Of a stretch of 64,000 nt of DNA, positions 26,114 to 54,286 are shown piece by piece. The notes under the pieces are model-generated. The model was not told the DNA's origin, made no database searches, and saw only the letters and a program-made list of their open reading frames with translations. A program made the position numbers and the translations under genes. Each line of letters opens with the position of its first letter. Positions within the stretch are counted from its first letter, which is position 1. The stretch is from Amoebidium appalachense (lineage: Eukaryota > Protista > Ichthyosporea), in contig CAVNZM010000005.1 in assembly GCA_963693365.1 (NCBI GenBank), positions 8,722,334 through 8,786,333 on the forward strand, read 5' to 3'.

Positions 26114-26143
26114 CACATAATGGGAGAAATTGTAAACTTTACA
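26114..26143 (+). repeat. Left TIR
   Basis: cacataatgggagaaattgtaaactttaca; weaker similarity to the right end continues to ~26164. Confidence 0.8.
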
Positions 26144-26716
26144 ATGTTGGGTAATCCACAACAGCCTATATATATAGTTGTCTGTATAGTAAAATGCTAG
26201 GACCGGTAGGTGCAACTTCCCATGAAATGGGAATGATTTACTGATGTCAAAAGGCAATCGGCAAACACGGAGGCAAGATGCAAAGGGAAGGGAAGGGAAG
26301 GAAACACCAGTCGAACGCCGTCATTATAGCTCATCTCAGGTTTAAACCAAAACCCTGCCGGCACTGCCGGCAGAACACACCTGCCTTCCAATCTTATTAA
26401 ATGGACCGATTTCATATATGTACACAGGGAACCGGAGAATTATTCTAGCCGGCTTAGATACAAGCAAAATCGGCAGACAGGCCTGTGGTTTACCGTTTTC
26501 GATAGATCATACATGAGCTAACACATGCTTACATGCTTGCCGCGCGCCTATTTGTGCTTACAGGGTTACCAGGAAGACCATGCAGTGTGCCAAATTTCAC
26601 GAACCAACACCTGAAAATAAGAAGGGAAAACATGTGTCTGGAGATTGGGACAAGCAGAAGAGAAATGGATAACGGACTCAGAACGAACGTCTATGGAATA
26701 TAAAATCATGGTCAGG

Positions 26717-26882
26717 GGACTCTGAGAGTCTAATCCCCCCTGCAAGACACCATCAAAATGTACTCATATGAAGAAGGTAAAACACATTCCCTGGACTCTG
26801 AGAGTCTACTTCTCCCTGCAGACACCATCGTAACGCACTCATAAGTAGAAAGAAAAACAGACTTCATGGATTCTGAGAGTCC
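26717..26882. repeat. Left subterminal ~76-bp tandem repeat with GGACTCTGAGAGTC(C) core
   Basis: Cores at 26717, 26793 and 26868 (one mismatch in the third); reverse-complement copy at 54034-54048. Confidence 0.8.
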
Positions 26883-28102
26883 ATTTCCTAGAGCAGAACA
26901 TACTAATCAACCACATATTGTAAATGCTCAAAATATCGACCAGACTTTGAAAGTACGGGGTGGTTTTGTATATGAAGTACACTGGGACCGTTTGAATTCA
27001 TCGAAAGAAAACAGACAACACAACACACACGAGTACTCCAACATTTAATTAAGACATACTACGAAATTTCCAAGGTGTCCGTTCCTACAAGCAAAAATAA
27101 AATTTGCCGAAATATATTCATAACAAGAAGAATCTCTCATTCATATAAGGTCGTTTAACACAATGGAGAGGCCAGGACTCTTTGTCGTAAGTCAACATAT
27201 CTACACCGTGGAGGCAGTTTGCTATAACGAAGTATGCCAATTACGATTTCATTCCAAGGATAGCAATACCATACGCATTCGTGTGAAGGTCTATTGACGG
27301 TCATTCGAGTTATAACAGACACCATACAGAATATTACTATCCCTTGCGAGGGTTTCCGAAGGATGGTATTTTTTTCTTGATGCTGTATATGGGTACCCTT
27401 GGTCGTTTTGCGGGGACTGGCACCTCCGTAGATGCTCGGCGCTTGTGTGTTTGTCCTGATGGGTAACGATACAACTTTAGTTACAACCAACCCTCAAAAA
27501 TTCCTGCATACGTGCTTCATGAATTTCACACACACACTCACACAAGCTTTCTCTCTGTCACTCTCTCTCTTGCTGTCTATCTCTATCTCTATCTCCCTCT
27601 CTATCATCATCTCTTCTCCCCCTCTCACTCGCTGTCGCTCTCTCCCCCCCCTCTCTCTCGCTCTCTCTCTCTCTCTCTCTCTCTCTCTCTCTCTCTCTCT
27701 CTCTCCCCTCTCCCCCCCCCCCCCCCCCCTCCCCTCCCCCGTCTCTCTCTCTCCCTCTTAGCCCTACCTCCCTATCTCCGAATCTCCCTATTTCACTCGG
27801 ACATGCAAATGCACATACACTGCACAGAAAATGGATGGGGGGTACCTGTTACTCGAGGCAAAGAGAACCAGTCTCAGGTATGGGGGGGGGGGGCTCGGAA
27901 TATCCCCTCACATAGATCAGTAAAGATTGTATAATACAGGTTACTTCTCACGGACAAAAAGATAAAGGAAATAATTAGTTGGTTCCCCTTTTTTTTTTTT
28001 TTTTTTTTTTTTTTTTTTTTTAAAGGGCTCCCTCGGGACCCGTAAGCTGTTTTTTGTGTGTGTTTGTTTTTTTGCCTGTCTAGCAAAATAAAAAGTTATG
28101 GT

Positions 28103-30510
28103 CTAACTTTGCCGACTCATTAGTATAGCGCCACAGAGAAAGACCAATAATTTATTGGCATGGCGGCATCTAAAAAAGAAGCCAAAAGGGTGCCAGGGGA
28201 GAAGGGGAGAGAGAGGGGAGGGGGGAGAGGTGAGGAGGGGAAGAGGTGGAGGCAGCAGAGCGGACGACCCAAAAGAGCCGCAAGGAACCAGTCCATCTCT
28301 GACCAAGCGGGAACGATAAATAAGTCTAATAAAGGATGGAGGTTTTTTAAAAATATTAGCCGGAAAGCTAACCGCTACGAGCCAACTCTACCCTCTTTTC
28401 GACCATATGGGGAAACATAACACCAACAGAATCAACCGGAACACCAAGATTTTTATTCTGGAACTAAGGTACAGGTTAGATGATAATGTAAATTGTAATT
28501 TTAGCTATATCAGGTACAAGAACACCACATTTTCTATGTTAAGGATCATAAGGTTTGCCTTGCACCACTCTGACACTACATCGAACAATCTTTGCAGGCG
28601 TCTAGGGGTACGGGCAAGGAGGGACAGATCATCAGCATAGAGAAGTGCAGGCGGAAAGTTATTAATAGGGTCATCGTTTTCGGCGTAAATCTGACAGCCA
28701 AATCATCTATAAATAGGTTAAACAAAAAGGGGCTAAGCAATGAACCCTGCAAGAGACCTCTAGTACGAGCAAAACCATATGAAAGATGCCCATTAACCAC
28801 AGCTCTACCATAGGTTTGAGACAAGAGTGCTTCTAACAGAACACCAATGCAGTGTGGTACACCCCGTGCAGCAAGCTTTTCCCATAGGAGACCAGGGGAG
28901 ACAGATCGTAAGCAGTTTTCCAATCAATAAAGCCAACATATTGTGCACCAACTTGCATAGAATCTGCAGTGCCATATTTGAACATAACATGAATTTTTTT
29001 ACGAAAAGCGGATGGCATGGGTGTATGTGAAGAATAGATTGAAACCTAGGGTGATGTGCAAATAACCTAAGTAAGCAAGCTTCAAAGAATCTACGAACAA
29101 CCTGGGTTAGTGTAATGGGGCGAAAGGATGATATGGGGCCCTCAGAGTCCTTCTTAACTATGGGGATCACTAAGGTATCTAACCAAGATGACGGGACATG
29201 TCCACATTTAACACACCAAGAAAGAGAGAGCTAACATATAGTAAGATCAGGTTTAATAGCACGATCACTTCCTTTTGTGGGTAGGAGGGAACAAGGATTT
29301 TAAGAAACCCAGCAGGGAGTCCATCAGGTCCACAAGACTTACTAGAGCTATAACTAGATATCACAGACCATATGGCATCGGGACTGAAAAAGGGAGGATC
29401 GATTCTATGGGGATAGATGGGTCTACAGGCCACACAATGGGTTTCTGAGCGGGGGTCCTATCTTTAAACAGTTCCGAGAAAACTTACAGAGTCTATGAGG
29501 GGGCTCCAGTGGTATCACCAATAATACGAGCAGGGGGGCCAAATCGATCATACTAGCAAGCCGGCGCAAGCTTTCCTTTTGAGACAGGGGCACCTAGTCT
29601 AGCGGGAGTGGTGTTTGGTAACAAGAGAGCACGGGATATTCCTTCCTACCACCGCCAGCATAATCACCGAGATCTATCAAATCATCAACAATAAATTAGT
29701 CAGTATTAGTACGAATGAATCTGGCCTGGCTGTCAGATTCTAATAGGCGCATATATATAGGGTGTTTCGTAGCATAGCATACACATACATCAACTCTACC
29801 CCACTGTGACTTAAGCTGGGATAGACGGAGGCGAAAGGTGGGAGGGGGAGGGGGAGCAGATCAAGGGAGATCTTAGGTAGGAAAAGGATAGGAGAGTGGT
29901 CAGATGACCTAGAGAGGTTAGGAGGGAGAGAGAGTTTGACATGGTTGATGGCCAAAAGGCCACTCCCCAGTCGGTGTTGTGGGCATGGGATTTTGAGGGA
30001 ACCGCAAAGTGTGACTTTGGACATACCTTGCTAAGGGATAGCACGCTCCGGGGCTAGATGGGTACCCGACACTCACTTGCAGTGTGTCTGTGTGGTGGAG
30101 TCGCGTTAAATCACCTAAAATAACAGTGGACATTGGTAACTGTGACAACTCGTGAGTCAATCGACAACCGACATAGATGGTGGGTAATATACAAAAGTAA
30201 AAACATTAGAAAGAACTCTATAAAACCGAGAATTCCGTTTTTGCTACCGGTTTGCACTTCACTCTCAGTGTGGTGCGGCAAGTACAATAATGCCTCGGTT
30301 TTTCGCGTAACCGGGGTGTGTGGATGTGTCGACCAATGTAGAGTTGAATTTGTGGTGGTTTTTAAACTGTGTTTCGCAAATCACTGTAAACGTGTGGTTG
30401 TTTGTCTGTTGTTGTATGTAGCTGATTTTATCGTCGAGTGTCCCGGGGGGGAGGCCCTTTTGGGGGCCCAGTGTCCGAGCATTCCAGAAGAAGAAGGATA
30501 AATTAGGCAT
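28103..30510 (-). pseudogene. LINE ORF2 (AP endonuclease + RT), multiple frameshifts
   Basis: FFWNARTL, VICETQ, ILGDL, SDH; SKSCGPDGLP, SFRPITL, FIDWKTAYD, GLLQGSLLSPFLFNLFIDDL, YADD. Confidence 0.9.
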
Positions 30511-52959: not shown

Positions 52960-53738
52960 AAAGGATATTCTAGGAAATTTTTTTGACTTTTGTTGAAAAT
53001 AAGTCTGCTAACAATCTATCGCACACACACACACACACACACACACACACACACGCACACGCACACGCACACGCACACACACACACGCACGCACACACAC
53101 ACGCACACACACAAACATAGGTCAAGAACATGGTGTCCGAGAACCTGATATCATTCAGGAAAGCACTCAACACCATGCAACCCACCGTGTAGACGCTGAG
53201 TATGATGCCGACAGCCCACCCCCACCTTTGCCGCTTAGTATGTTTTTCTAGCCGATTGCAAAGCGTTTACGCCCCAAATGACGACAACAGCTGCAATGAC
53301 CATGATGTTTGCTCGAATGACCATCACGTTATACCCTGTGGGTATATATAAATTTGTATTCATTTGCATCAATATTTGTATTGAAACACATGTTCTAGAG
53401 AATTCACTCGTCGTTCAGTGAAAGTAAAGAATGATTGAATGATTGAATGAATAAACGGCTTCCTGTCCTTCAGCCACATTTTGTCTTGACATATTTTTAC
53501 ATGCTCATGGAACGAACAAACGAACGAACGGGCTTGTGTTTTTTTTTTTGTGTTATGTTGTGTTATGTTATGTTTTAGGGCTTTTGTCTCTACTAGCTCG
53601 AGTAGATGGTGGTTGGGATTGGGGTGGGGTTGGGTTGGTTCTCTTGACACCAATAAGTGTATCAGTTTTTCTGGTCCATAGCACGGGCATGTATGGTTGA
53701 GAATGCACAAGACTGGGTTTGCAATAGGCCGATTAACA

Positions 53739-54048
53739 TATTCCGGAATATGTGTTTTTCTGCACGTTGGGGACTGCTCAGCTATGAGATCTTTACGTGA
53801 CCCAAACCACAGCAAAACCACTTGTCCCATAATATCGTATTCCGGAATATGTTTGTATCAATACTGTCTAACTTCTATAACGTCTTGCTCATGGACTTGC
53901 AGACACGTCTTATGGCTCCTGGAACATGCTTATTTTAATTCTAATGTATATTCCGGAATACGTGTTTCCCCGAAGACGTGTTTCTCCACAAATCTGTGAT
54001 GGGCACGTTTTTGGTTCGTTTTGTCTTCTTGGTGGACTCTCAGAGTCC
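53739..54048. repeat. Right subterminal repeats: TATTCCGGAATA x3 and GGACTCTCAGAGTCC
   Basis: Perfect 12-bp palindromes at 53739, 53838 and 53949; inverted copy of the left motif at 54034. Confidence 0.8.
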
Positions 54049-54256
54049 GAATTGGATATGATATGTATAATTTGACACGAACGTGCAGGCCCCGTTCGGA
54101 TGTTTTCATGTCAATATTTTGCTGTGTTTTTGTATCCGAACACCCCTCATGACGGGCCGTCCCCGTTGGTCGATATCTTTCCTGCCGGGTCCCCAGCTCA
54201 GCATTTACTATTCATATGCTAATAAAATACCCCCGTTGTGGCACCACGTCCCAAAA

Positions 54257-54286
54257 TGTAAACTTTACAATTTCTCCCATTATCTG
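54257..54286 (-). repeat. Right TIR
   Basis: Reverse complement reads cagataatgggagaaattgtaaagtttaca, 28/30 identical to 26114-26143. Confidence 0.8.

Follow-up and report, generated by a model that had tools for sequence, protein, structure and literature searches.

In brown and red algae, giant DNA transposons have been described with accessory genes for ParB, N6/N4 DNA methylase and 2-oxoglutarate (2OG) oxygenase domains, and two algal papers of 2025 propose, as an untested idea, that these proteins bind and modify the transposon that encodes them (PMC12477816; bioRxiv 10.1101/2025.02.11.637652). As described in the former, Sola1-1_Ec32 of Ectocarpus is 21,549 bp long, has AACCG-CGGTT termini and a 4-bp target-site duplication (TSD), and carries a gene for a ParB plus N4/N6 methylase protein opposite its transposase. 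As described in the latter, the Plavaka elements of red algae carry PAG2, in which PF01555 is combined with SET, and PAG3, in which ParB is combined with a PhyH-like 2OG oxygenase; Supplemental Table 6 of that paper may list more hosts. Here we report on a locus of the ichthyosporean Amoebidium appalachense (contig CAVNZM010000005.1), where a window of 64,000 nt (i.e., the whole stretch analyzed, to which all coordinates refer) contains a 28,177-bp element at 26112-54288 with terminal inverted repeats (TIRs) and two spliced genes arranged head to head. With a probability of roughly 0.6, we regard it as a non-autonomous Sola1-like TIR transposon that is moved in trans and whose cargo would modify the DNA or chromatin of the element itself against silencing.

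The ends of the element were fixed by contig breakpoints. Contigs of 6 of the 24 listed public runs (X1, X2, X5, X12, X14 and X15) were aligned to 53120-54640 and 25700-27540, and the comparison with other copies covered the outermost 0.8-1.3 kb of both arms. Two of the runs, X12 and X14, were taken as transcript-bearing solely for an exon-exon junction, and no run is recorded as RNA. At the right end, contigs depart from the window behind 54288 in four of four runs (2, 3, 3 and 2, i.e., 10 contigs) and continue into mixed flanks with an agreement of 0.58-0.67; further contigs depart at 54289 or 54291, where their flank starts with ATAG-like letters. On the left side, 5 contigs, again from four of four runs, pass into foreign flanks at 26112. 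Those of X12 and X14 represent right ends, matched here via the TIR, and that of X15 is a true left arm, which covers 26112-26881 with 1 difference and carries 252 nt of another flank; a loose end of X15 at 26881 matches nothing in the window. The TIRs defined in this way are 32 bp long and identical at 30 of 32 positions (26112-26143 on the plus strand and 54257-54288 on the minus strand), have AAC...GTT termini and contain an internal palindrome, TGTAAA(C/G)TTTACA. A search of the window with a 25-nt TIR pattern gave exactly two matches, and 100 shuffles gave none. The TIRs are bracketed by a perfect TSD, ATAG (26108-26111 and 54289-54292; 4/4), which is shown for the window copy; when both boundaries were shifted symmetrically (11 shifts) and TSD lengths of 3-10 bp were tried, no other flank match was perfect.

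The original prediction had recognized the inverted termini and their palindrome, which are confirmed, but had taken the repeats to be 30 bp long (28/30), with CA...TG ends at 26114 and 54286 and a total of 28,173 bp, which the breakpoints correct. Its 8-bp flanks (6/8) lie on the same diagonal, with the terminal AA/TT of the TIR counted as flank. It also asked whether multi-copy alignments stop at its two ends. Alignments do stop and continue in other flanks, but at 26112 and 54288; among the alignments listed, no loose end lay at 54286 (24 of 47 listed) or at 26114 (20 of 28 listed). An X1 contig that starts exactly at 26114 without foreign flank appears to favor the 8-bp, CA...TG reading. 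We attribute this start to a branch in the graph, as the TIR is shared up to 26143 by a diverged subfamily; right-arm contigs similarly end at 54283.

Both arms are present at high depth. In X1, contigs of the right arm have depths of 527-542 and those of the left arm of 651-659, compared with 20.4 for the 0-difference flank contig, and in X5 the arm contigs have depths of 219-280 vs. 9.07 for the flank contig. These ratios suggest about 25-30 near-identical copies, with the caveat that depth does not equal copy number. The window copy departs from the dominant right-arm contigs at no fewer than 13 sites in 1.17 kb (about 1%). Other contigs have only the TIR in common with it and then diverge (X1 at 54250, X2 at 54257), which points to sister elements with the same ends. 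A diverged subfamily of low depth (about 85-93% identity over 54109-54283 and 26111-26274) has the same TIR and is a candidate for, or a relative of, the autonomous partner.

Contigs that join the left flank straight to the right flank are also found and represent uninterrupted target paralogues. They lack about 11 nt beside the site and confirm the continuity of the flanks, not the length of the TSD. The target itself (25702-26111 and 54293-54543) is a high-copy repeat, with contig depths in the thousands in X1. The match of an X12 contig opens at the acceptor of the cargo gene's exon 22 and passes across the right TIR to 54288, where the contig enters a different flank; the cargo gene is thereby tied to a terminus in another copy. 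Contigs of the transcript-bearing runs lead from the last cargo exon through the right TIR (53121-54288) and on into another flank for more than 1.1 kb; this hints at read-out transcription from some copy, although contigs cannot prove a single transcript. Over 26940-27540, X1 has no contig cover and gives no evidence either way. The varied flanks, the high depth on both arms and the contiguity of the last cargo exon with a right TIR elsewhere bear out the predicted family of giant cargo-carrying DNA transposons, and we are almost certain that a real multi-copy TIR element is present.

Palindromes are enriched in both subterminal arms. The left arm (26144-26881) has 7, compared with a shuffle mean of 1.4, and the right arm (53252-54256) has 8, compared with 1.2; none of 200 shuffles had as many in either case, and in the left arm some palindromes were counted twice, in the observed and the control sequences alike. 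The left arm has palindromes at 26217 and 26355 and three GGACTCTGAGAGTC-type units with a spacing of about 75 bp (26717, 26793 and 26868). The right arm has three TATTCCGGAATA palindromes at 53739, 53838 and 53949 and GGACTCTCAGAGTCC at 54034. The inverted subterminal motif that had been noted on both arms is present, as GGACTCT(C/G)AGAGTC at 26717, 26793, 26868 (a variant) and 54034.

The cargo gene lies on the plus strand and starts at 39303. It was modeled from sequence alone with 21 exons, to which a terminal exon 22 was added from EukProt. Exons 1-20 form a GT-AG chain of about 1,750 codons without a stop, and the acceptor of exon 21 is uncertain. Two EukProt proteins of Amoebidium parasiticum (P0001 and P0002) are identical to exons 10-17 (44293-49590), 19 and 20 (51177-51719) and 22 (53121-53251), and a third (P0003) is identical to exons 10-15 and 22. 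All ten exons that had been modeled before the match and are covered by it (10-17, 19 and 20) are confirmed, and because the proteins match letter for letter, the splice calls of the covered exons are validated.

Within the confirmed part, exons 13 and 14 (46398-47822) encode an N6/N4 DNA methyltransferase domain of the beta class. It matches PF01555 (E 5e-9; 36.8 bits vs. a cut-off of 26.7 bits), PHROG methylases (E 2e-13), clusters of the ESM Atlas (0.95-0.96) and 99 phage records. Residues 283-513 of P0003 align to phage methylases, motif IV precedes motif I, as in the beta class, and the S-adenosylmethionine-binding motif I is intact. No match was found in viral contigs for the methylase, OTU-like and repeat exons, or in metagenome contigs for P0003 and the TIR pattern. 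A poor single-sequence AlphaFold model of P0003 (predicted local distance difference test score, pLDDT, 38) had no Foldseek match at E≤0.001, with methyltransferases among weak rows only.

The remaining domains of the cargo gene are predicted. Exons 1-9 (39303-44162) were found in no transcript-derived protein and would encode a 2OG-Fe(II) dioxygenase-like and a ParB-like domain. Exon 2 (39791-40417) has the pattern HxD...H...R and scores of 0.92-0.96 in the ESM Atlas to clusters of the 2OG/PhyH type, the best of which is a Nucleocytoviricota cluster. It had no sequence match in Pfam, NCBIfam or the PDB and none in phages or viral contigs, and its single-sequence AlphaFold model, a poor one (pLDDT 34), had no Foldseek match at E≤0.001. 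The TET/JBP dioxygenases that the original prediction mentioned for KDZ elements are not borne out here, as no TET/JBP profile of Pfam matched the exon at E≤5. Exons 8 and 9 contain IDGNHRR (i.e., GxxR). Exon 18 (50027-50866) has the catalytic motifs of an OTU-like cysteine protease (DDGSC...NGHY), and exon 21 contains a 130-aa domain in two tandem copies (51996-52959; 36% identical, E 2e-20). The copies, between which a C-run near 52487 holds a frameshift, are absent from the EukProt isoforms and match no family significantly in Pfam, PHROG or NCBIfam.

These domains suggest how the cargo might serve the element. In Amoebidium, transposable elements are reported to be silenced by 5-methylcytosine (5mC), and N6-methyladenine (6mA) to occur at the 5' ends of genes and to mark active genes (PMC11244446; PMC12695648). 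A DDD transposase of an autonomous partner with the same 32-bp TIR would cut and paste the unit with a 4-nt staggered cut. The ParB-like domain would bind the arm palindromes and recruit both the methylase and the dioxygenase to the element. There the methylase, dioxygenase and optional OTU-like domains would act on its DNA or chromatin and keep its expression on. That the cargo acts on the element itself, a function predicted from domain content, falls a little short of an even chance in our estimate. Improbable, at slightly less than one chance in four, is the boldest form of this idea, a young and spreading element whose single ParB, methylase, 2OG and optional deubiquitinase protein would be a self-targeted epigenetic editor that marks copies as active against 5mC silencing. 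If that form were true, the cassette would be a cross-kingdom anti-silencing module of transposons, found in red algae, brown algae and holozoans.

Several results speak against the favored reading of the cargo. Motif IV of the methylase reads DIPT, where the two aligned phage relatives have DLPY, and departs from the catalytic pattern [DNS]-P/L-P-[YF]; in the rotifer enzyme N4CMT, replacement of SPPY by APPA is reported to abolish activity (PMC8885841). Since the aromatic residue of motif IV is lost, the activity of the methylase is doubtful, and we would put catalysis at somewhat under even odds; the domain may have turned from methylating bases to binding or flipping them. All three EukProt isoforms begin at exon 10 and omit exons 18 and 21, and no dioxygenase-bearing protein of at least 232 aa was found among 55 candidates, nor any longer homologue. 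The full fusion as one protein therefore stays predicted. Single-ORF (open reading frame) look-ups from the unconfirmed cargo exons found 0 of 12 in the protein collection. The ParB-like segment matched TIGR04172 (DGQHR) at E 0.0035, far below the cut-off, with no Pfam match on single exons and nothing significant against three phage ParB proteins, and the matches of exon 18 were weak (viral L-protein OTU domains of the PDB, E 0.28-1.2; Pfam Peptidase_C65, E 0.24).

The main rival explanation holds that the giant non-autonomous element is real while its cargo is an inert, decaying passenger with a dead methylase. In addition to the DIPT motif, it can draw on the frameshift in exon 21, on the absence of exons 18 and 21 from all three isoforms and on the opposite gene, which is already broken. 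Against it stand about 1,750 codons that are open over 20 predicted exons with canonical splice sites, the confirmation of every modeled exon that a protein covers, and intact residues in methylase motif I, in the HxD...H of the dioxygenase-like domain and in the C/H pair of the OTU-like domain. We consider an inert cargo unlikely, with odds of about one in three at most.

The second gene, on the minus strand (27320-34972), is also spliced. Its first exon (34972-34581) contains a 107-aa ORF with a CCxxxxC motif, followed by a frameshift, and further exons lie near 34151-33924, about 32850-32790, about 32080-31936 and from 27455 onward. The junction 31936/27455, which bypasses a nested long interspersed nuclear element (LINE), is present in contigs of X12 and X14. 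The same 107-aa protein is found in EukProt (P0004), and this identity argues that the frameshift is not an assembly error. The ORF matched only itself among 1.84e9 representatives, and nothing was found at E≤1 among 903 candidates; Pfam matches to Toxin_8 and defensins (E 0.01-0.04) were rejected as chance cysteine matches. The minus-strand gene contains no DDE core, and a Pfam scan of 149 of the window's 238 complex ORFs found no transposase family. The two head-to-head genes of the original prediction stand and are both spliced, but its transposase-like gene is reduced to a frameshifted 107-aa ORF for which neither a DDE domain nor a homologue was found. From its position and from the CCxxxxC motif, which we take to resemble transposase N-termini, the gene is likely a decayed transposase or a deletion relic, and it would be the remnant of the element's own transposase. 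Because it has neither a DDE core nor a homologue, the window copy is non-autonomous.

The nested LINE (minus strand, 27989-31720, with an approximate 5' end) occupies the last intron of the minus-strand gene. As predicted, it is a LINE: it has an ORF1 (30503-31714), a degenerate reverse transcriptase matched by RVT_1 at 28579-28923 (E 1.2e-7) and a poly-A tail, seen as a T-run at 27989-28021; a TSD of at least 6 bp was not found. A 129-bp inverted piece of its reverse transcriptase region (36812-36940; 94.6%) lies between 92-bp direct repeats (36720-36811 and 37065-37153) in the intergenic part of the element. Each of the two genes is preceded on its upstream side by degenerate duplications at 37901-38903 and 35169-35897 (about 410 bp at 76% and about 220 bp at 77%) and a 69-bp tandem repeat; these are possible regulatory repeats.

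Given the 4-bp TSD, the superfamilies with 8-bp TSDs to which the original prediction had pointed (hAT, Zisupton/KDZ, P and Merlin) are excluded; they need TSDs of 7-9 bp, and the flanks at the true ends match at 4/7, 1/8 and 6/9. EnSpm/Plavaka was rejected as well, as the EnSpm rows of Ectocarpus list CAC termini and a 2-bp TSD (PMC12477816). For Kolobok, RR...YY ends and a TTAA TSD are reported, with long terminal direct repeats in KolobokP (PMC9587614). The AA...TT termini obey the RR...YY rule, the TSD is ATAG, and self-BLAST shows no long terminal direct repeats; classical Kolobok was thus rejected, and KolobokP does not fit. Sola1 agrees best: the window copy has a 4-bp TSD, and its AAC termini agree with three of the five terminal bases published for Sola1-1_Ec32 (AACCG). 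We therefore think it quite probable, by analogy, that the element is of the Sola1 type, which is also reported from a choanoflagellate (PMC6875170). Membership is not claimed; the Repbase rule asks of a non-autonomous element that its terminal positions 1-11 be alignable with a member already classified (PMC4455052). Two results count against the placement. First, Sola1 is reported to prefer AWWT targets (PMC3845634, citing Bao 2009), and of the four targets readable one fits (ATTT), two are one base off (ATAG and ACAT) and TTCC shows no fit. Second, no Sola-type DDD transposase was found in the ORFs scanned; with neither a DDE transposase nor a homologue of the minus-strand gene found, the superfamily rests on the termini, the TSD and the analogy of the cargo.

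The poor AWWT fit leaves room for another superfamily with 4-bp TSDs (i.e., Kolobok or an undescribed group), to which an independently acquired ParB/methylase cassette would have been added. The AA...TT termini agree with this, as does the occurrence of the cassette on Plavaka, Mutator and Zisupton elements in red algae (bioRxiv 10.1101/2025.02.11.637652). It is opposed by the absence of a TTAA TSD and of KolobokP-like direct repeats, and by the coincidence of AAC termini, 4-bp TSD, giant size and an opposite-strand methylase gene with a predicted ParB-like domain with those of Sola1-1_Ec32, so that we give it about one chance in four. That the termini belong to two separate short elements with host genes between them is very improbable: although no single contig spans the whole and the TIR is shared by other elements, a single perfect TSD brackets both ends, uninterrupted paralogues join both flanks, the window holds only two TIRs, high depth extends inward from both TIRs as far as the last exon or 3' region of the respective gene, and in another copy the last cargo exon is contiguous with a TIR and a different flank.

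Other mobile elements lie to the left of the Sola1-like transposon. At 18272-23742 (minus strand) is a tyrosine-recombinase retrotransposon, which we take to be Ngaro/PAT-like, with an RVT_1 match (E 2.6e-18) and a tyrosine-recombinase-type ORF (RSGE...GHSLRIGG). Its split direct repeats (18491-18841 and 23392-23742; 18272-18361 and 18841-18930) are 100% identical in both pairs, and it is therefore very young. A Copia-type long terminal repeat (LTR) retrotransposon with integrase and RVT_2 matches and 622-bp LTRs that are 97.7% identical lies at 11660-17990 (plus strand), and a related LTR piece at 355-1035. To the right, 1.4 kb from the end of the transposon, is a spliced gene with two HMG boxes (55693-58397, plus strand); its N-terminus resembles a mitochondrial presequence, and we infer a TFAM/Abf2-like protein.

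The element extends this type of cargo to an opisthokont near animals, with three domain types predicted in one gene. If the methylase were dead and the fusion not made, the locus would be merely another giant non-autonomous transposon. The genus is culturable, and its 5mC silencing of transposable elements, its response to 5-azacytidine and its 6mA maps are published (PMC11244446; PMC12695648); together with the approximately 25-30 apparent copies, this makes the self-modification hypothesis testable with long-read modification data.

A cargo of this kind is already known from the giant transposons of brown and red algae, and in a relative of animals we found no earlier report: in full-text literature, with most subscription papers and Repbase Reports outside this scope, no DNA transposon of ichthyosporeans or further holozoans turned up with such a cassette. 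The Amoebidium genome paper does not mention the cassette; its main text names no Sola transposon (the one "SOLA" in it is an instrument name), and two of its supplement files contain no Sola, ParB or PF01555 (PMC11244446). The same paper describes giant repeats of Amoebidium, namely GEVEs (giant endogenous viral elements), adintoviruses and Plavaka-flanked clusters. Like these, the element is multi-copy, tens of kb long and from the same genus. They are viral or intron-poor, whereas the genes of the present element are rich in introns, its TIRs are short and its TSD is 4 bp; it adds an intron-rich fourth kind to those reported. Among fungi, KDZ and Plavaka elements carry TET/JBP genes. The Amoebidium element is likewise a giant DNA transposon with a 2OG-dioxygenase-like cargo; it differs from KDZ in the lack of a TET/JBP match and in its 4-bp TSD, compared with 8 bp in the KDZ rows of Ectocarpus (PMC12477816).

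Amino-methyltransferases of prokaryotic type are known from other eukaryotes. The bdelloid N4CMT is one, but it is encoded by a host gene and has an SPPY motif and a chromodomain (PMC8885841). Closer to our host are the DAM retrotransposons of ichthyosporeans, whose methylases are linked to 6mA and expression (bioRxiv 10.64898/2026.05.21.726589). Those are LTR and DIRS elements with Dam-type enzymes, in contrast to the beta-class methylase on a TIR DNA transposon reported here. The red-algal PAG2 and PAG3 have the same three domain types on giant DNA transposons (17-19 kb, from Bostrychia and further red algae) and come with the same untested self-modification hypothesis, including inverted-repeat arrays near the accessory genes that are proposed to be ParB sites. 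There the domains are divided between two genes, one with SET, on EnSpm/Plavaka elements, whereas in Amoebidium a single gene is predicted to combine them, SET being absent and an OTU-like domain added, and the TSD of the element is 4 bp. Sola1-1_Ec32 is a brown-algal, autonomous element with a 282-bp imperfect TIR and an accessory protein of 1,104 aa; the ichthyosporean element has no DDE transposase, a 32-bp TIR and a protein predicted at about 1,900 aa, to which dioxygenase-like, OTU-like and repeat domains are added. Nested insertions and pseudogenized transposases are also reported among the giant families of Ectocarpus (PMC12477816). Compared by description, the two elements have in common a size of more than 20 kb, AAC...GTT termini, a 4-bp TSD and, opposite the position of the transposase, a gene with a methylase domain and a ParB-like domain, the latter predicted in Amoebidium.

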